DNA from: a bacterium
GTDB lineage: Bacteria; UBP13; UBA5359
Length of the DNA stretch: 64,000 bases
Assembly (NCBI GenBank): GCA_028685295.1
Contig: JAQUEL010000004.1
Location: 24-64,023 of the forward strand
Reading direction: 5' to 3'
The notes below the pieces were generated by a model that was not told the origin of the DNA, searched no databases, and saw only the letters and a program-made list of their open reading frames with translations. A program made the translations under genes and the position numbers. Below, piece by piece: positions 4,293-63,810 of the stretch (positions within the stretch are counted from its first letter, which is position 1; the number at the start of each line of letters is the position of its first letter).

Positions 4293-4484
4293 TGATATAA
4301 AGAAGTTGGAATTCAGAACAGCCGGAGAACGTTTTGAGCAAGTATTAGCTCTCTTTCGGCTGCTGAGCTCTAATGTGCTTGAATACTTGAATATTGTGGG
4401 CCTGAGACAGTGGGTGGAAACTTAAATGACCGGTTACGGTCAACCCGCCGAGGCTGGAGTGAGACGATTAGGATTGTTCTCTAA

Positions 4485-4509
4485 GACCTCCGGCCGGAGG
4501 TCTTTTTTT
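4485..4509 (+). promoter_or_regulatory. rplJ leader hairpin with U-tract (GACCTCCGG/CCGGAGGTC + TTTTTTT). Likely the L10(L12)4 autoregulatory leader attenuator.
   Basis: An 18-nt perfect palindrome followed by T7 lies inside the roughly 300-nt untranslated leader upstream of rplJ. Confidence 0.45.
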
Positions 4510-4611
4510 GCCCATGTATTGATTAAGAAGGCGAAACATGAAAAAGGCATTATATGCAGGACACGCGATGTAGAAATCCCGGGCCCGGCATTTGAAATGG
4601 AGGTGAGATTA

Positions 4612-5661: not shown

Positions 5662-5899
5662 TATTTATTGCCGGGGGGAGAATGGATTACCTTTCTCCTC
5701 CAACGGCAGATTGCTGAACAATGGAATTATGTTTGTCTACAGATATGATAAGGGTTGCGTCTTCCCTTTTTATTGTTTTGACAAACATATTTCTTTATGC
5801 TAACATTAAAATTTGTCACCTTAAGCGATGAGGAGCTGTACCCTTCAAGGGGGTATTTATGCTTTTTTTCATAATACTCGAACGTTGGGAGTGGAGTGC

Positions 5900-8800
5900 A
5901 TGACGATAGCGGCCAACAAGCGTGAGAGGGTTAGTTATGCTAAGATACCTACGGTTCTGGAACTGCCTAACCTTATAGAATTACAGCGAAATGCATATCA
6001 GTGGTTTATCGATACCGGGCTGAGGAATTTGCTTGACAGCTTTTCCCCTATTCAGGATTTTACCGGTAATCTGGTATTGGAATTTTTGGATTACACCTTT
6101 GATGAGCCGAAATATACCGTCGACGAATGTCGTGAACGGGATATGACCTATTCTGCACCGTTAAAAGTGCAGGTGCGTCTTATAAATCGTGTAAACGGAG
6201 AGGTCAAGGAGCAGGAAGTCTTTATGGGAGATTTTCCGCTGATGACATCAAAGGGTACCTTTGTAATAAACGGAGCTGAGCGGGTGATTGTCAGCCAGTT
6301 GGCCAGATCTCCCGGTGTCTATTTTAAATCGGAACTGGATCCGCATGGAAATGATCTTTATTCCGCAACTTTAATACCCAATAGGGGAGCCTGGATAGAA
6401 TTGGAGTTCGATGCCAACGGCATCATGTGGGTGAGGGTGGACAGGACTAGAAAGATCCCTGCTACCATACTTCTGCGGGCCCTTGGTTATAGAATTGTTT
6501 CCGATCAGGGAACTTATATCAATCGTATAACCGAATCATCCAAGCCTAAGAAGGGGCTTATCGGTCTTGAATTGGCAGAGGATGTGGTTGATCCTGATAC
6601 CGGTGACGTTTTGGCTGTCAGGGGTGCGGTTCTGGATGAGGCGGCGATTACTGCTTTAAAAGATGCAAGGGTGAAGGAGGTTTCCATCATCCGGGAGGAA
6701 AAGGTTGCCGTTCAGCAGGAAATCGGTGTCTTCGATCAGCAGGAGGTTATCTATTCCATTAAGGATCATGATCGTATAAGCGGCAAGGTTCTGGCTGATG
6801 ATGTAACAGATGCTCATACCGGTGAGGTTCTGGTTGAGAAGGACAGCAAGCTGACCGGCAGGGTTATCGGCAAGCTGAATAAAGCAGGCATAAGCGAAGT
6901 AAAGATTTATGAAGAGATAAAGGTCATGGAGATTGAGGAGTGGATGCGTCTGACTTTGGAAAAAGACAGCACCTCTGATTCCGATGAGGCCATCGTGGAG
7001 ATATATAGAAAATTGCGTCCCGGGGAGCCTCTTACCATGGATGGAGCGAAGATGCTCTTCAGATCTCTCTTTTTCGACCAGAAGAGATATGATTTGGCTC
7101 ATGTAGGCCGTTATAAGCTCAACAAGAAGCTGGGTCTAGATATAGATCCTATGCAACATGTTCTTACTAGGATGGATATCATCGAAACCGTGCGGTATCT
7201 TAAGAATCTGCCGCAGGGTGAGGGAAATATTGATGACATCGATCATCTTGGCAATCGACGGGTACGTGCGGTTGGCGAATTGCTTCTGAATCAGTTTAGA
7301 GTCGGCCTGTTGAGAATGGAACGCGTGATCAGAGAACGTATGATTATTCAGGAAACAGAGACGTTGACACCACAGGCCCTGATAAATATACGGCCTGTTG
7401 TTGCCGCTATAAAGGAGTTCTTTGGCAGCAGCCAGTTGTCTCAGTTTATGGATCAGACCAACCCTCTGGCTGAATTGACCCATAAGCGGCGGCTCAGCGC
7501 TCTGGGCCCCGGTGGTTTGAGCCGGGAGCGTGCAGGCTTTGAGGTGCGAGACGTGCATCACTCTCACTATGGGCGCATATGTCCCATAGAAACCCCCGAA
7601 GGTCCGAATATCGGTCTTATCGGGTCAATGGCTACCTATGCCCGGGTAAATGAGTACGGTTTTATCGAAACCCCGTATCGCAAGGTAGTAAATCGTTGTG
7701 TTTTGAACGAGATAGTTTATCTATCTGCTGATGAAGAAGACAACTACATCCTGGCACAAGCCAATGAGCCGATCGATGAAAACGGATATCTGATAAAAGA
7801 CAAGGTGCCGACCAGGGCCAGGGATATTATCGAAGCTGTGCAGGCCGATAAGGTGGATTTTATGGATGCCTCGCCTAAGCAGCTGGTCAGCGTTGCTACG
7901 GCGCTTATTCCATTCCTGGAGAATGACGATGCCAACCGTGCTCTTATGGGATCGAACATGCAGCGTCAGGCTGTTCCTCTGCTGCGTACGGAAGCTCCCA
8001 TGGTGGGAACCGGTATGGAGCGTAAGGTTGCTATGGATTCCGCTGCGGTGATTATTGCTGAGAGAGCCGGCGTGGTAAAGGCCATGTCCGCTGAAAGAAT
8101 TATCATCCAGACGGATGATGGTGAGTTGGATACATATAAAGTATACAAATTTATGCGTTCCAACCAGGGAACCGCTATTAATCAGCATCCGATTGTTTCG
8201 CTGGGACAGCGTATTGAAAAGGGAGAGGTCATTGCCGATGGCGCCAGCACGGATCATGGCGAGTTAGCTTTGGGGCGCAACGTCCTGGTCGCTTTCATGC
8301 CATGGAAGGGATACAATTATGAGGATGCCATTCTTCTTAGCGAGCGAATGGTCAAGGAAGATGTTTTCACTTCTATTCATATAGAGGAATATGAGTTGGA
8401 AGCCCGGGATACCAAGCTTGGCCCGGAAGAAATAACTCGAGATATTCCGAACGTTTCCGAGGATGTTCTGAAAGACCTTGATGAAAGAGGTATCATACGT
8501 ATTGGTGCTGAGGTAAGGGCTGAGGATATTCTGGTAGGAAAGGTTACTCCTAAGGGTGAAACCGAATTGACGCCTGAAGAGCGTTTGTTGAGGGCGATAT
8601 TCGGAGAGAAAGCACGCGAAGTAAGGGATACCTCTTTGCGGGTGCCTCACGGCGAAAAAGGACGCGTTGTCGATGTCAAGGTGTTTAAGCGTGAGAGCGG
8701 TGACGAGCTCTCTCCCGGGGTTAATGAGCTTGTCAGGGTCTATATAGCTCAGAAGAGAAAGATCCTGGAAGGCGATAAAATGGCCGGACGCCATGGAAAC

Positions 8801-9799
8801 AAGGGTGTTATCGCCCGTATTCTGCCGGAAGCGGATATGCCGTTCCTGCCGGACGGCACTGCAGTAGATATTGTGCTGAATCCCTTGGGTGTTCCTTCGC
8901 GTATGAATATAGGCCAGATATTGGAAACGCACTTCAGTCTGGCTGCCAAGGAATATGGTCTTGTACTTGAGAATCCGGTCTTTGATGGAGCTACCGAGGT
9001 AGAAATAACTAAAAGTGTTATCCAGGTAGTGGAAAGCAAGAAGCGCAGTATACTGAAAGAGTATATATCCACTGAATTGATGCTGGAGATACCGACTGAG
9101 CTGGACGAAAGACCTATCGATGAGATTCCCGTATTGCTTGACAGCATACTCACCGGTATGGAGAATGAAGATCTTTTAAAGCTGGCGCATAATGTTGCCA
9201 TGGAGGTTGATGAAGGCAGCTTCCAGGTTACCACCGGCAGCCGTCGGCAAGATATCGAGATACTGGTAGCAAAGATTATGGAACGTGCCTATGCCAGAGT
9301 AGGTTTACTACCCAGCGGCAAGGCAATTTTGCGAGATGGCATGACTGGGGAACCCTTTGATCATCCTGTGACGGTAGGTTACCTCTATATGATGAAGCTG
9401 GCCCATCTGGTTGATGATAAAATCCATGCCAGGTCTACCGGTCCATACTCACTGGTGACTCAGCAGCCGTTGGGCGGAAAGGCTCAGTTCGGCGGCCAGC
9501 GTTTCGGTGAGATGGAAGTCTGGGCGCTTGAGGCGTATGGTGCAGCCTTTACGCTGCAGGAATTGCTGACCATAAAATCCGATGATGTTATGGGACGTGT
9601 CAAGGCTTATGAGGCTATTGTCAAGGGCGAGAACGTTCAGGAGCCGGGAGTGCCGGAATCCTTCAAGGTCTTGATCAAGGAGCTTCAAAGCCTGGGCCTT
9701 GACGCCAGGATACTATCCGAAGAGGCTAAAGAGGTCATTATTAAAGACGACGAAATAGATCTATCTGAGACCGCTCGCGAACTGGGCGTAGAGGTCTGA
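5900..9799 (+). CDS. rpoB: DNA-directed RNA polymerase subunit beta
   Basis: ATG at 5900 ([17 protein letters not shown]...) with an upstream Shine-Dalgarno. About 1299 aa with conserved beta-subunit motifs. Confidence 0.97.
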
Positions 9800-14821: not shown

Positions 14822-16900
14822 ATGGCGAGAGTTTTTGATCTGAATAAAATACGGAATATTGGAATCGCTGCGCATATAGATGCCGGAAAGACTACGACTA
14901 CCGAGCGTATACTCTTCTATACCGGAAAGGTACATCGTATCGGCGAAGTTCATGAGGGCGCAGCCACTATGGACTGGATGGTTCAGGAGCAAGAGCGTGG
15001 TATTACCATTACCTCTGCAGCTACGTCATGCCTTTGGCAAGGGCATAATATAAATATTATCGATACTCCCGGACACGTTGATTTTACCGTTGAAGTTGAG
15101 CGCTCTCTCAGGGTTCTGGATGGCGTTGTAGCTGTGTTCTGCGCTGTTGGCGGTGTTCAGCCACAATCAGAAACGGTATGGCGCCAGGCTAACCGTTACG
15201 CTGTGCCTCGGGTAGCATTCGTAAATAAGATGGATAGAACGGGTGCGGATTTCGCTAAAGTAGTCGATAGCATACGTAACAGACTGGGAAGCAATGCTTT
15301 GGCAATGCAATTACCTATAGGTGCAGAAGAGTCCTTTAAAGGCATGATAGATCTTGTAACGATGAAGGCGTATATCTACGCTGAAGCGTTGGGAACAGAA
15401 TTCAAGGTTCGGGATGTGCCGGAAGAGATGAGGGCTGATGCTCTGGCAGCCAGGGAGCGTATACTCGAAGTTGCTGCTGAGGCTGATGATCTTCTAATGG
15501 TCAAGTATCTTGAAGGTGAAGAGCTGACCGATGATGAGATCAGGCATGGTGTAAGGCTGGCCACGCTGAGCGCCCAGGTGGTGCCTGTGTTTTGCGGCTC
15601 TTCCTTTAAGAATAAAGGCATTCAGCCGTTGCTGAACGCAGTAATAGATTATCTCCCATCTCCGCTGGATATAGCCGATGTTGAGGGAATGGATCCTCAC
15701 TCCAATGAGGTTATTGTGCGCAAGTCTTCTGATGATGAGCCTTTCAGCGCATTGGCCTTTAAGATTGCTACCGATCCTTATGTGGGTAAATTGACGTTTT
15801 TCAGAATTTATTCCGGTACGCTGGCAAGCGGATCATACGTATATAATTCCGTCAAGGGCAAACGCGAACGTATTGGACGTATTCTCAGAATGCATGCCAA
15901 TAAGCGCGAAGAGATCGATGTTGCTTATGCCGGGGATATATTGGGAGCGGTCGGACTTAAAATTACCTCCACCGGAGATACGCTTTGTGCAGAAAATGCG
16001 CCTGTTATTCTAGAAGCTATCGAGTTTCCCGAGCCGGTTATTTCTGTAGCCATCGAGCCTAAAACGAAGGCTGATCAGGATAAGATGGGCATGGCTCTGG
16101 TAAAGCTGTCAGAGGAAGATCCTACTTTTAGAACCTTTGTGGATGAGGAGACCGGTCAGACTATCATAAGGGGCATGGGTGAATTGCACCTGGAGGTAAT
16201 CATTGACAGGTTGATGCGTGAATTTAATGTGGATGCCAACGTCGGTACTCCGCAGGTCAACTATAAAGAGACCATCACCACTGCAGCTAAGGCAGAGGGA
16301 CGTTTTATTCGTCAGACCGGTGGCCGCGGCCAGTTTGGTCATGTCTGGCTGGAAGTGGAACCCCTTGAGCCCGGTAAAGGCTTTGAATTTGTCAGCGCTA
16401 TCGTTGGCGGCGTTGTTCCAAGGGAATATATACCTGCGGTTGAGGCTGGTGTCAGGGAAGCCTTGGAAAGAGGCGTTCTGGCAGGTTATAATCTGATAGA
16501 TATTAAGGTTACCTTATATGATGGGTCCTTCCATCCGGTGGATTCATCCGAGATGGCCTTTAAAATTGCCGGTTCTATGGCTTTACAGGCGGCTGTTAAG
16601 AAAGCAGGCCCAATTATCAAGGAACCTGTTATGAGAGTTGAGGTTACTACTCCGGAGGATTACCTGGGAGATGTTATGGGTGACCTTAACTCCAGAAGAG
16701 GCCATGTGGAGCAGATGCGGCAGCCGATGAGCGGTGTGCACGAGGTTGTTGCAGTTGTCCCGTTGGCTAAAATGTTTGGCTATGCTACGGATCTGCGTTC
16801 CAGAACGCAGGGCAGAGCTACATATAGCATGGAATTTGCGCACTTTGCGGAGGTTCCGGCAGGCATAGCGCAAGAAATTATTGGCGATATAAAGAGATAA
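14822..16900 (+). CDS. fusA: Elongation factor G (canonical)
   Basis: 692 aa with [17 protein letters not shown] and NKMD motifs, a G' insertion, and the domain IV tip SFHPVDSS. Confidence 0.97.
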
Positions 16901-16972: not shown

Positions 16973-18175
16973 ATGGCAAAGTCAAAGTATGAGAGGACAA
17001 AACCGCACGTCAACGTAGGAACGATTGGTCATGTAGACCATGGTAAGACGACATTGACGGCAGCGATCACCAGGGCGCTAAGTAATACGGGGCAGGCTTC
17101 TTTCAGAAGCTACGATGAGATTGACAATGCGCCGGAAGAGAAGGCTAGAGGAATAACTATTGCCACGACACACGTGGAATATGAGACAGAGACGAAGCAC
17201 TATGCACACGTAGACTGTCCGGGGCACGCCGACTATATCAAGAACATGATCACTGGAGCGGCGCAAATGGATGGAGCCATTCTGGTGGTATCTGCAGCAG
17301 ACGGGCCTATGCCGCAGACCAGGGAGCACATATTGTTGGCACGTCAGGTAGGGGTGCCGTATATTGTAGTTTTCATGAATAAGGCGGATATGGTAGATGA
17401 TCCGGAGCTGTTGGAGCTGGTAGAGATAGAGATAAGGGATCTGCTGAACAGCTATGAGTTTCCCGGAGATGATACGCCGATAATAGCGGGTTCTGCGTTA
17501 AAGGCTCTGGAGTGCGGATGTGGTAAGAATGAGTGCGAGTGGTGTGGACCTATATGGAAGTTATTGTCAGCACTGGACAGCTATATACCTGCTCCTGAGA
17601 GAGATGTAGACAAGCCGTTTTTGATGCCTATAGAGGATGTTTTCAGCATCACAGGGCGAGGGACGGTAGTAACGGGAAGAGTAGAGCGCGGCAAGGTAAG
17701 AGTAGGAGAAGAGGTAGAGATAGTAGGTTTGGCCCCGCAGAGCCGCAAGACGGTAGCAACGGGAGTGGAGATGTTCCGTAAGTTACTGGATGAAGGCATA
17801 GCAGGAGACAACATAGGAGTATTGCTGCGTGGAGTGGATAAGAATGATGTAGAGCGTGGTCAGGTATTGGCCAAGCCCGGCTCGATCAAGCCGTATACAA
17901 AGTTCAAAGCCAACGTATATATTCTATCCAAGGAGGAAGGCGGCAGGCATACTCCGTTCTTTAACGGTTATCGTCCGCAGTTCTATTTCAGGACAACGGA
18001 CGTAACGGGAGTGGCGACACTGCCGGAGGGCGTAGAGATGGTAATGCCTGGCGACAACGTGGCGTTGTCGGCAGAGCTGATAACGCCGATAGCGATGGAA
18101 GAGGGGCTGAGGTTCGCTATACGAGAGGGCGGACATACGGTCGGTGCCGGAGTTATCAGCGCTATTGATGAGTAA
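16973..18175 (+). CDS. tuf: Elongation factor Tu, copy 2 (str operon copy)
   Basis: 400 aa, identical to copy 1 except the last residue (E in place of G). The DNA has only a few substitutions. Confidence 0.97.
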
Positions 18176-24523: not shown

Positions 24524-25066
24524 ATGTCTAGATTAAAAGATAAGCATTTAAAGGAAGTCGTACCTGCCATGATGGAGCAATTCGGGTTTAAGAATATCAT
24601 GCAGGTTCCGAAGGTAACAAAGATAGTTGTCAATATGGGTGTTGGGGATGCCATTTTGGATCCCAAGCTCCTCGATGCGGCTGTGAATGATCTGGCGCTT
24701 ATAACCGGGCAGCGGCCGTTGGTTACCAAAGCCAAGAAATCCATTGCCAGCTTTAAAATCCGTGAGGGTATGTCTATTGGCTGTAAGGTGACGCTGCGCG
24801 GCGAAACTATGTATAACTTTCTTGATAAATTAATAAATGCAGTTTTACCACGTGTACGTGATTTTAGCGGGGTTTCTCCTAAATCATTTGACGGCAGAGG
24901 AAATTATGCTCTCGGCTTGAAGGAGCAATTGATATTCCCTGAGATAGATTATGACAAAGTAGTCAAAACAAGGGGAATGGATATAATTATTGTTACCAGC
25001 AGTGATAATGACGATCAGGCCCGAGCATTGCTTGCAAAGATGGGTATGCCTTTCAGGGAAAGCTGA
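24524..25066 (+). CDS. rplE: 50S ribosomal protein L5
   Basis: 180 aa L5 family. Confidence 0.96.
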
Positions 25067-27149
25067 GGAGGGGATTACGACGGAACGCTTTGATATCGAT
25101 CATCTGAGGAATATTGCTGTTGTCGGTCATAGTGGGTGTGGTAAAACAACTTTAGTGGAGTCGTTGTTATACAACTCCGGAATGGTCGACAGATTAGGTA
25201 AAGTGGATGAGGGCAATACAGTTTCCGATTATGATCCGGAAGAGGTAAAGCGCCGCATCTCGATTAACACCACGGTAGAGCCAGTTATCTGGAAGGGATG
25301 GAAAGCCAATATCCTGGACACTCCGGGGTATGCGGATTTCATTGGTGAAGTAAAGAGTGCTCTTCGTGTGGTGGAAGGCACGCTGATTACGGTTTGTGCT
25401 GTTTCAGGCGTTGAGGTAGGCACTGAAAATGTCTGGTCACTGTCGGCTGATAGGAACATGTCCAGAGTGTTCTTTATTAATAAGATGGATCGTGAAAATG
25501 CGAATTTTGTCGGAACTCTTTCTCAACTCAGGGATGGATTTGGCAATAATGTTGTGCCGTTACAGTTGCCGATTGGATCGGAGCAAGATTTCAAGGGTGT
25601 TGTAGATCTGTTACAGATGAAAGCAATTCTGTACACAGATGGAAAGGATTACACCATTACGGATATTCCTTCTGAGCTGATGGACGAGGCGACCGCCAAT
25701 AGGGAGAAAGTAATAGAACTGGCTGCGGAAGGTGACGATGATCTTCTGATGAAGTATCTGGAGGGTGAGGATCTGACCGCTGATGAAGTTATTTATGGAA
25801 TGAAGCGTGCTATTAGTGCTGGAAACGTATTTCCGGTTTTTTGTGGGTCAGCTGCGACAGGTATAGGCGTTCAGTCGCTGATGGAGGCATTGATCGAGTG
25901 GATACCTGCACCGGTAGCCACGGTTACAGGTACTGATCCCAAAACCGATGATGCAATTGAAATTGATACGGATAAGCTGGCGGCGTTGGTATATAAAACT
26001 ATGGCTGATCCTTATGTTGGTAAGCTCACATATTTTAGAGTCTTTACCGGTACATTGAAATCTGATTCCCACGTTTACAATCCTCTGCATGAACATGCCG
26101 ATGAGCGTGTAGGCCAGGTGTTTTATACCACCGGTAAGAAGCAAGAGGCTACAGATGGTGTGGGTGCCGGTGATTTTGGTGCGGTAGCAAAGCTGCAGGT
26201 AACGGTAACCGGTGATACATTGTGTGATAAGGATAAGCAGATCGTAATTCCCGGCATAAGCTTTCCGCACCCAATAATGTCGGCTGCTGTTTATCCTAAG
26301 ACAAAAGGCGATGAAGACAAGCTTGGGGCGGCACTGCAGCGCATGGTGGATGAAGACCCTACATTACATGTTCGACGAGATACGGAGACCGGGGAAACGC
26401 TGCTTTCCGGTATGGGTGAAACGCATATTGATATAGCTGTTGATCGTTTGAAACGTAAGTTCGGTGTTGATGTGGCAGTAGCCGTACCGAAGATACCGTA
26501 TCGTGAAACGGTAACTGCTCAGGCCAAATCGGAATATAAACATAAGAAGCAATCCGGTGGTCGCGGTCAATACGGACATTGTGTTATAGAGATCGAACCT
26601 ATGCCGCGAGGTGAAGGGTTTGAGTTTGTTGATAAGATATTTGGCGGTGCTGTACCCAGGCAGTATATTCCTGCAGTGGAGAAGGGTGTGCGTGAAGCTA
26701 TGCAGGAAGGCATTCTGGCTGGATACAATGTTGTGGATGTCAAGGTGACGCTGGTCGACGGATCCTTCCATCCGGTTGATTCATCGGAGATGGCTTTTAA
26801 GATTGCCGGCTCTATGGCCTTCAAAAAAGGGTTTGCCGATGCCGCGCCTGTTCTACTGGAGCCGGTCATGAACGTTGAAGTGAATGTGCCGGATGCCAAT
26901 ACCGGTGATATAATCAGCGATCTGAACACCAAGCGAGGCCGTATACTTGGTATGGAACCGCAAGGTAGCGGCCGTACGGTGGTAAAGGCCATAGTGCCTC
27001 TGGCTGAAATGCAGAGATATAGCATTGACCTGACCTCGATAACGCAGGGACGCGGTAGCTTTATCATGGAAGAGTCGCATTTTGAAGAGGTGCCGGCACA
27101 TACGGCTGAGCGAATCATTGCTGAAGCCGCAAAAGCGAAGAAGGAATAG
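25008..27149 (+). CDS. Divergent EF-G paralog (EF-G2-like translational GTPase) embedded in the spc operon. The start codon is uncertain: ATG 25008 inside rplE or a non-canonical start near 25074.
   Basis: All five EF-G domains are present. The G1 motif is [10 protein letters not shown]3 is DTPGYADF (Tyr replaces the catalytic His), G4 is NKMD, a G' insertion is present, and the domain IV tip SFHPVDSS is identical to fusA. An AGGAGG Shine-Dalgarno at 25066-25071 is followed in frame only by ATT/ACG codons, and the first in-frame ATG is 56 nt inside rplE. Confidence 0.8.
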
Positions 27150-27220
27150 TTGTTTAGGCGAGGGGAATTCAGAAATTTGGACCCCCTGGCTCCTGACTTC
27201 TGATAAGATGGAGGTAAGAA

Positions 27221-27406
27221 GTGGCTAAGAAGAGTCTGGTAAATAAGACAAATGCGCAGCCGAAGTTTTCTGTAAGACAACACAGCCGCTGTCGTATATG
27301 CGGGAGACCACGTGGTTTTATGCGTAAGTTCGGTATGTGCCGGATCTGTTTCAGAACGCTGTCACATCGTGGCATGATACCCGGTATTACCAAGTCAAGC
27401 TGGTAA
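27221..27406 (+). CDS. rpsN: 30S ribosomal protein S14 type Z (zinc-binding)
   Basis: 61 aa with CRICGRP...CRICFR. Confidence 0.95.
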
Positions 27407-63072: not shown

Positions 63073-63756
63073 ATGCTGATAAAGGGCATTTTTCTCGTTA
63101 TATGTTTTTGTTTAATCCCACTTTCAACCGCAGCCGCAAAAGCTGAAACATATTCCATTGTCGCTGTACCTGCTATGCAAGCCAAAGCAAAGAAGGCGCC
63201 GCTTTATATAACGGATGCACATAGGTTGGGTGAACTACAATCAGATTATGATTCTATTAGTGTAGAAGCAGTCAGAATTTATCAATATGGAAAATCAAAA
63301 CCTTTTTATAAAGGCATAACGCTTATCTTTACAGATTCAATAGTAACGTTAAATATTGACGAAGCAAAAGCCTTATCCGCAACCATACCAGATCTGATAA
63401 AAATAGGTACTGAATGGGCAGAGATAGAAAAGGAATCCGCAGAGGCAGATATATTCGTGGGAGGCCCTGATTATATATTTAATGTAGGATTTTATCAGCA
63501 AGGTAATAAAAGGATTATTTATATGTCCAGCCTCGAAGCCACAGTAATGCTTAAATCGCTAGATGATGTTTTAAATTTCAAAGATTTAGTTGATCAAGGA
63601 TTAATATGGCTGTCACGCAATAAAAGTGTCAACCTATCGCAAAGCAATAAAAACGATTTGATAACATTAGTTACCAAGAAAGGCTGTCATAATAAAAACG
63701 GGTTCCGGCAAAACACCAGAACCCGCATAAATACTGGAGCCGACGAGCGGGATTGA
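63073..63756 (+). CDS. Hypothetical secreted protein in a low-GC patch. The 3' end overlaps tRNA-Thr on the opposite strand.
   Basis: Signal peptide (LVICFCLIPLSTAAAKA), no known domain, local GC about 38% against about 49% elsewhere. Confidence 0.4.
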   Translation: MLIKGIFLVICFCLIPLSTAAAKAETYSIVAVPAMQAKAKKAPLYITDAHRLGELQSDYDSISVEAVRIYQYGKSKPFYKGITLIFTDSIVTLNIDEAKALSATIPDLIKIGTEWAEIEKESAEADIFVGGPDYIFNVGFYQQGNKRIIYMSSLEATVMLKSLDDVLNFKDLVDQGLIWLSRNKSVNLSQSNKNDLITLVTKKGCHNKNGFRQNTRTRINTGADERD

Positions 63757-63810
63757 ACCGCTGGCCTACGCATTACGAGTGCGTCGCTCTACCAGCTGAG
63801 CTACGTCGGC
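63735..63810 (-). tRNA. tRNA-Thr(CGT)
   Basis: Minus-strand acceptor stem GCCGACG pairs with CGTCGGC. The anticodon loop is cuCGUaa. It has a GGTTCAATCCC T-arm and a terminal TCCA. Confidence 0.8.

Follow-up and report, generated by a model that had tools for sequence, protein, structure and literature searches.

The closest described relatives of the gene considered here belong to the EFG II (EF-G2) subfamily of elongation factor G (EF-G). The subfamily is defined by a Gly-His P-loop, a Leu after GKTT and a relaxed G2 motif with Ser, which reads RxxSI in the Clostridia group, and also by Thr, Gly and Lys/Arg at three positions of domain II (Margus 2011, PMC3150367). The function of EFG II has long been a puzzle, and the few members that have been studied behave differently. 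In mycobacteria, the catalytic His88 of EF-G1 corresponds to Tyr98 of EF-G2, and the H88Y change in EF-G1 causes near loss of its GTPase (10.64898/2026.05.25.727771). The EF-G2 of Mycobacterium smegmatis (PDB 9K0Z/9K10) is reported to be without ribosome-dependent GTPase and to be a stress-specific factor. In Bacteroides, EF-G2 enables GTP-independent translation and is induced by carbon limitation (PMC10294740); the paralog of B. thetaiotaomicron (fusA2; PDB 7UVP/8DMF) is reported to sustain such translation at a slow rate. Thermus thermophilus EF-G-2 (PDB 1WDT/2DY1), an EFG II protein that also has Tyr, is reported to keep both ribosome-dependent GTPase and translocation activity, as summarized in the preprint 10.64898/2026.05.25.727771. 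Here we describe an EF-G paralog from the candidate phylum UBP13 ('Ca. Dunuliota'; GC ~49%), encoded on a stretch of 64,000 nucleotides of contig JAQUEL010000004.1 (assembly GCA_028685295.1). This whole stretch is called the window below, and its positions are used throughout.

The gene is embedded in the spc operon and flanked by rplE and a Zn-type rpsN. The type of protein, its Tyr and the likely impairment of its GTPase are already known from the systems above, and the operon position is common to a phylum; the unusual part is a conserved non-canonical start. On the comparisons given below, we consider it likely that the gene encodes a GTPase-impaired EF-G2, co-transcribed with ribosomal protein (r-protein) genes and translated from a near-cognate start codon (ACG at 25080 or ATT at 25074). 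The features on which the argument draws are as follows.

24524..25066, + strand: rplE (uL5), the gene upstream of the EF-G paralog; its stop is TGA at 25064-66
25066..25071, + strand: Shine-Dalgarno (SD) sequence AGGAGG, sharing the last base of the rplE stop; invariant in three lineages
25074..25076, + strand: ATT, a near-cognate codon and the alternative start candidate, 2 nt past GGAGG; invariant
25080..25082, + strand: ACG at the orthologous start position, 8 nt past GGAGG, the favored start; invariant in three lineages
25080..27149, + strand: putative EFG II (EF-G2-type) coding sequence, 689 codons from ACG 25080 or 691 from ATT 25074
25125..25154, + strand: G1 (P-loop) with the EFG II-type Gly and Leu, GHSGCGKT at 25125-25148, from motif mapping and alignment
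25251..25265, + strand: G2, RRISI (residues 60-64), an RxxSI, the Clostridia-type EFG II variant of RGITI
25317..25331, + strand: G3, DTPGY, with TAT at 25329-31 (Tyr) in place of the catalytic His (His87 of T. thermophilus EF-G)
25479..25490, + strand: G4, NKMD, intact
25845-25856, + strand: G5, GSAA, intact
26544..26579, + strand: domain IV loop 1, with the Lys-Lys of EFG II type-II positions
26763..26786, + strand: domain IV loop 2, SFHPVDSS, the same as in the canonical fusA of the window
27221..27406, + strand: rpsN (uS14, 61-aa four-Cys Zn-ribbon type), downstream of the paralog; its GTG is preceded by GGAGG at 6 nt

The reading frame of the paralog has an in-frame stop at 24984, is open from 24987 and ends with the stop codon at 27147-49. 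All five EF-G domains (GTP_EFTU, EF-G_D2, EFG_III, EFG_IV and EFG_C) score above their Pfam cut-offs. The canonical fusA is elsewhere, in the str operon (14822..16900, after rpsG and before tuf); it carries AHIDAGKT and DTPGH and is 47% identical to the paralog. The open reading frame (ORF), the Pfam hits and this identity thus bear out the preliminary description of the locus, which had reported a full five-domain EF-G homolog between rplE and rpsN, distinct from fusA, and its placement of GHSGCGKT, DTPGY, SFHPVDSS and the Tyr codon at 25329 was found in the sequence as given. Long antisense ORFs that overlap the EF-G and rpsN genes (e.g., 238 aa at 26567-27283, - strand) most likely just shadow the coding strand.

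The protein is, by its sequence, a member of the known EFG II subfamily and not of a new clade. The diagnostic positions were read off a near-ungapped alignment to T. thermophilus EF-G, with numbering from ATT 25074. The type-I positions are Gly16, Leu25, Ser61, Thr291, Gly333 and Lys/Arg352 in 1WDT (19, 28, 64, 316, 360 and 379 in T. thermophilus EF-G), and all six are EFG II-like here (G18, L27, S63, T309, G354 and K373). Of the type-II positions, Lys471 and Lys472 were read and are present as K491 and K492; the definition of this set also includes Asp216, Val250, Leu264, Glu513 and Gly603. The relaxation of RGITI to xxxSx, which in the Clostridia group is RxxSI, is seen in RRISI. The canonical EFG I signature (DxPGH, AHxDxGKT) is absent, its place being taken by DTPGY and GHSGCGKT. 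The paralog also shows the EFG II trait of being a second EF-G outside the str operon beside a str-operon EFG I, the latter being the fusA of the window, with a TIGR00484 score of 1154 bits. The preliminary description had called the G domain atypical; the Gly-His P-loop, the Leu after GKTT, RxxSI and DxPGY are all normal features of EFG II.

The placement within the family rests on reciprocal scores of hidden Markov models (HMMs) and on a neighbor-joining (NJ) tree built from the 120 best hits. Among the NCBIfam models, NF009381 scores highest at 958.5 bits, against 746.6 for TIGR00484, whose cut-off (659.4) is passed. Two homologs score like the paralog on these models, and the fusA of the window shows the opposite order (TIGR00484 1154, NF009381 839). 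Rooted on that fusA, the tree places the window clade on a separate long branch. From its sequence the paralog is assigned to the NF009381-type, Clostridia/Chloroflexi-like sub-subgroup, unlike the Thermus- and Bacteroides-type EF-G2, with which it shares the subfamily only in a broad sense; it falls short of the model NF009377 of the former (683 vs. a cut-off of 890) and of NF058620 of the latter (610 vs. 1000). The options of a Tet(M)-like protein, a spirochaete-type EF-G or a new clade, which had been held open earlier, do not survive. With the Tet(M)/Tet(O)-type models, the scores stay well under the cut-offs (NF012153 359 vs. 775; NF033148 233 vs. 1100), and the TetM structures give only ~197 bits. 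The 'KDG' three-residue insertion in switch I of the spirochaete-type spdEFG1 is absent, the alignment to T. thermophilus EF-G being ungapped over residues 5-107. A new EF-G clade is rejected on the HMM scores together with the diagnostic positions.

In sum, the paralog resembles EFG II at large in its five domains, in the str-operon fusA alongside, in the Gly P-loop, the Leu after GKTT, RxxSI and DxPGY, in Thr, Gly and Lys at the type-I positions of domain II and in the Lys-Lys of domain IV. It differs in lying inside the spc operon and in having ACG at the start; in groups other than Armatimonadota and UBP13, the members tested lie in scattered places.

The replacement of the catalytic His by Tyr, as read in the preliminary description, is correct, and it is not peculiar to this gene. 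Among the 120 best database homologs, the residue after DxPG is Tyr in 117 and Phe in three, and none has His, so that the proposed alignment of G3 across homologs turned up no His-bearing member. The solved EF-G2 structures read DAPGYGDF (T. thermophilus EF-G-2, 1WDT) and DTPGYADF (M. smegmatis EF-G2, 9K0Z), and the latter is identical to the motif here. The M. smegmatis protein is otherwise much more diverged (503 bits, vs. 668 to canonical Thermus EF-G) and is encoded outside an r-protein operon; the Bacteroides gene has its own locus, induced by carbon limitation, whereas here the gene is in an r-protein operon.

The prediction that Tyr makes hydrolysis slow or absent is reasonable, having been established for relatives, but Tyr alone is no proof. 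Three considerations weigh against impaired hydrolysis. As Thermus EF-G-2 is reported to keep its GTPase despite Tyr, the residue should not be read as a sign of a dead enzyme. The bit score of the paralog to canonical Thermus EF-G (668) exceeds those to the EF-G2 structures (479-503); its sub-subgroup has diverged least from canonical EF-G, and impaired hydrolysis is not certain there. Finally, to carry function over by analogy from the EF-G2 of Mycobacterium, Bacteroides and Thermus is a long reach. With these reservations, the product of the gene, in which the nucleotide-binding motifs and the domain IV tip are intact, would bind the EF-G site of the ribosome and hydrolyze little GTP or none, its role being either slow translocation independent of GTPase or one in stress or regulation. 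The stress role that had been proposed at the outset matches the present view of the EF-G2 family, which is one of stress or slow translocation.

The position of the gene is shared with another phylum. The order rplE-EFG-rpsN-rpsH was found in five of the five Armatimonadota-type homologs looked up (P0012, P0076, P0079, P0035 and P0041), the gene being inserted, as here, between rplE and a Zn-type rpsN. The five tested homologs outside this clade (P0065, P0063, P0045, P0100 and P0016), three of which carry a Bacillota or Firmicutes label, are located elsewhere, and homologs with another location include those of Bacillota and Chloroflexota. The first scans covered 77 further loci from genomes and 59 from metagenomes, and none showed L5 or S14 near the homolog. 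The peptide patterns used had not sampled the Armatimonadota clade, so this absence was a sampling artefact, and the arrangement is not unique to the UBP13 lineage. It is common to Armatimonadota, where the gene is routinely annotated as 'elongation factor G', and this lowers the novelty of the arrangement, as the preliminary description itself had said it would. A search of open-access papers for an EF-G gene in the spc operon gave nothing relevant. On several contigs, gene finders miss the 61-aa Zn-type rpsN, which tblastn recovers intact (L002 2777-2959; L141 7095-7277; L144 5601-5783; L148 ~4582); in those records the EF-G gene therefore seems to sit between rplE and rpsH.

In the NJ tree the Armatimonadota proteins form one clade, and the spc context is confirmed in members of both of its first-splitting subclades. 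The identity of the paralog to these orthologs is 57-60%, within the range of the flanking r-proteins (44-72%), so nothing points to recent transfer, and a recent horizontal acquisition from Armatimonadota is not supported by these comparisons. The shared insertion may be ancestral to both phyla or may have moved with its flanks. By RpoB similarity, the window lineage looks closer to Bacillota, where the best non-self hits are found, and with this a transfer is still conceivable. The RpoB itself (5828-9799; 1323 aa) exceeds the best Bacillota relatives (1103-1160 aa) by ~200 residues; the best local alignments cover only ~53% of it, and it probably carries a lineage-specific insertion.

The sequence comparisons indicate that the gene is functional and under strong purifying selection. 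Against the two other lineages, the ratio of nonsynonymous to synonymous substitution rates (dN/dS) is 0.064 and 0.087 at dS of ~1.2 and ~0.4, and it is indistinguishable from that of the flanking r-protein genes. Codon adaptation to the r-protein set is 0.762, close to that of fusA (0.764) and within the range of the r-proteins (0.72-0.79); non-translation genes give 0.68-0.735. The value is also above those of secY, adk and map, the overall bias of the genome being weak. The codon adaptation is suggestive, and argues against a barely expressed gene. A pseudogene was rejected on the dN/dS of 0.06-0.09 and on the occurrence of the same junction in three lineages and on many contigs.

Co-transcription with the r-protein genes, assumed from the start, is accepted here. 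Promoter-like and terminator-like sites around the gene are not above chance; the simplest view is that the gene is transcribed with the operon. No terminator-like site was found at 27149-27221, and a promoter or terminator of its own was rejected, nothing being above chance. One promoter-like site, TAGTCA-16 nt-TATAAT (10 of 12 matches), lies at 24960-24987 in the 3' end of rplE, ~90 nt before the EF-G start. Its -10 is kept in relatives and coincides with conserved L5 codons, and the region has fewer such sites than expected by chance.

What remains is where translation begins. A scan of in-frame codons upheld the claim that the ribosome-binding site has no canonical start codon: from the rplE stop up to GTG 25155, which is past the P-loop, there is no ATG, GTG or TTG in frame. 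The AGGAGG described as immediately following the rplE stop is present, but it overlaps the last base of TGA. ATT 25074 and ACG, at first listed as the only in-frame near-cognates beyond it, are both there, but the full set is ATT 25074, ACG 25077, ACG 25080, ATC 25095, CTG 25104 and ATT 25113.

The junction is well conserved. The sequence TGAGGAGGGGATTACNACG is found in independent assemblies of three diverged lineages (L002 and L038 represent one population, and L001 and L003 one contig, hence three), at 92% and 80% nucleotide identity to the window, and the protein cluster is on more than 20 contigs. Across the three, only two positions of the junction vary, the last base of the Thr codon before ACG 25080 (ACG/ACT/ACA) and the first base of the codon after it, a conservation equal to that at other initiation regions of the operon. 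The ORF has been held with low dN/dS over this divergence and the ACG is shared, so the ACG predates the divergence of the lineages. Loss of a canonical start by read error, against which the preliminary description had cautioned, is rejected, as the same junction recurs in independent assemblies of the three lineages and on many contigs. Of 200 shuffles, 199 are more structured than the junction RNA, and Rfam has no match at this place; a regulatory RNA structure at the junction was rejected on these grounds. The mark of a non-canonical start, a functional ribosome-binding site that has no canonical codon and is kept so among relatives, is thus seen here.

Translation most likely begins at this junction, on ACG 25080 or ATT 25074, and the comparison with orthologs puts the former first. 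The codon aligned to ACG 25080 is the start in ~100 of 125 homolog loci (ATG 66, GTG 20, TTG 14), with an SD upstream, and position 1 of the NF009381 profile maps onto it. The spacing from GGAGG to real starts in the window is 5-11 nt, most often 7-8; for ACG 25080 it is 8 nt, for ACG 25077 5 nt, and for ATT 25074 2 nt, which is outside the range. The Armatimonadota orthologs in the spc operon have the same layout (in L141, L144 and L147 the start follows GGAGG by 8-9 nt), with a canonical GTG, ATG or TTG at the position of ACG 25080. In L141 the junction reads TAG-GAGG-ttcgacac-GTG and in the window TGA-GGAGG-ggattacg-ACG, the stop overlapping the GGAGG in both. These orthologs differ from the present gene in their canonical starts and in belonging to another phylum. 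One of them might seem to be an exception: the JGI call of P0035 (680 aa) begins at an internal TTG, and the real start, within L147 2941-3003, is TTG 2962, 8 nt past GGAGG. The call is a truncated annotation and not a second non-canonical start. The preliminary description had offered AUU, coupling to rplE or recoding as ways to start, with a preference for ATT or coupling. The lack of a canonical codon stands, but ACG 25080, at the orthologous position, now comes first, and as a rough estimate we would give it slightly less than an even chance. ATT 25074 is a possible second choice.

Several points tell against a start on ACG. AUU is the better-documented near-cognate start in bacteria, and ATT 25074 is equally invariant at this junction. 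We know of no confirmed natural ACG start in a bacterium. Canonical codons do exist in frame inside rplE, and public annotations use them. A codon usage like that of r-proteins fits poorly with very low translation. In E. coli, ACG is in the class that initiates at 0.1-1% of AUG, with an N-terminal Met seen by mass spectrometry, and the AUU class initiates at ~1-2%; both codons give measurable initiation with fMet (10.1101/063800). The parallel in E. coli is with infC and pcnB, where a conserved non-canonical start (AUU) stands on a translation-related gene and plausibly limits or regulates output. The present case differs in that the codon is probably ACG and the start directly follows a highly translated upstream gene. 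Of autoregulation by IF3, there is no evidence for the EF-G2 gene.

The next alternative in order, a start at one of the canonical codons inside rplE, is unlikely. There are four of them in frame (TTG 24990, GTG 25002, ATG 25008 and TTG 25032), and a start at any would add an N-terminal extension of 14-28 residues from the +1 frame of the 3' end of rplE. The frame is open from 24987, and the upstream codons are kept in relatives. The synonymous sites of the last 15 codons of rplE are unusually conserved: third positions are invariant in 13 of 15, vs. 55% in the background (P=0.011). Similar conservation is, however, seen at other junctions and initiation regions of the operon, and ATG 25008 has its explanation in Asp/Asn codons that L5 conserves. 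Substitutions in the overlap are few; for L5 they are silent or conservative changes, whereas read in the EF-G frame they are radical (P/L/H, G/R/E). None of the upstream codons has a GGAGG-type SD. This had been said of ATG 25008, and rightly; two of the other canonical codons, TTG 24990 and GTG 25002, precede that ATG. Homologs have no such extension, 100 of ~125 beginning at the position of ACG 25080, and the strong, conserved and unstructured SD of this gene is exactly at the SD site of the orthologs.

Most public annotations nevertheless use the upstream codons. The records of this protein (P0241-P0245, P0001 and P0002) have three N-termini: 713 aa from ATG 25008 (NCBI, JGI, ENA), 705 aa from TTG 25032 (JGI) and 684 aa from ATC 25095. 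None of the three matches the orthologous start position. The last concerns three NCBI accessions that begin MDHLRN, and it leads to another alternative, a shortened N-terminus from ATC 25095 or CTG 25104. In E. coli, both codons are near-cognates of the 1-2% class (10.1101/063800). ATC 25095 is, however, 23 nt after GGAGG, beyond the 5-11 nt of real window starts, and the seven residues that would be skipped align with conserved N-terminal residues of homologs, e.g., an aromatic residue at position 4. We regard such a start as quite improbable.

Recoding or a lack of translation takes up what little remains. In the first case, a +1 shift on AGC-UGA-G, where rplE ends, would give an L5-EF-G2 fusion, or C-to-U editing would turn ACG into AUG. 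The EF-G frame is indeed +1 relative to rplE and begins exactly at the G after TGA, and a stop in the A site beside an SD-like sequence resembles prfB. But the SD-like element of prfB is upstream of the shift site and here it is downstream, tRNA-Ser on AGC would presumably be unable to re-pair on GCU, and the Armatimonadota orthologs initiate on their own start codon in the same layout. Editing of mRNA from C to U is, to our knowledge, not known in bacteria. We consider recoding very improbable. A special initiator tRNA for ACG was also considered and rejected: the tRNA-Thr(CGU) that reads ACG, encoded nearby (63735-63810, - strand), combines a G1-C72 pair with an anticodon stem that lacks a G-C run, and is an ordinary elongator. 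That the gene is a recently silenced relic, an intact ORF no longer translated after the canonical start was lost from the orthologous position, is just as improbable, with the SD and spacing preserved, the ACG common to three lineages at dS of ~0.4-1.2, the ORF intact at a dN/dS of 0.064-0.087 and the codon usage r-protein-like.

If translation begins at the junction on a near-cognate codon, the strong, unstructured SD overlapping the rplE stop, together with ribosomes terminating on rplE, would drive initiation, and the weak start codon would hold the output of EF-G2 to a fraction of that of L5. A stronger version, which we put forward only tentatively, is that ACG 25080 is a genuine, selected initiation codon that is read by initiator tRNA in a nearly ideal context (AGGAGG, an 8-nt spacer, open mRNA and ribosomes terminating on rplE) and would tie EF-G2 to a fixed sub-stoichiometric fraction of L5. 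If ACG were confirmed as the start, it would be a rare natural case of bacterial initiation other than on AUG, GUG or UUG. That two lineages keep the EF-G2 gene in the spc operon with core r-protein genes is a clue that its expression follows ribosome production and not stress. If the ACG start and its coupling to L5 hold, EF-G2 in UBP13 and Armatimonadota would be a growth-coupled partner of new ribosomes, e.g., in assembly proofreading or as a maintenance translocase, unlike the starvation-induced EF-G2 of Bacteroides. There is also a practical side: annotation pipelines give the gene three different N-termini, all probably wrong.

Two minor features of the window concern other translation genes. 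The two tuf genes (411-1613 and 16973-18175) encode identical proteins and differ at 3 of 1203 nucleotides, which suggests gene conversion between tufA- and tufB-like copies. Upstream of rplJ, an Rfam L10_leader match lies at 4383-4517, with 46.9 bits against a gathering score of 44.

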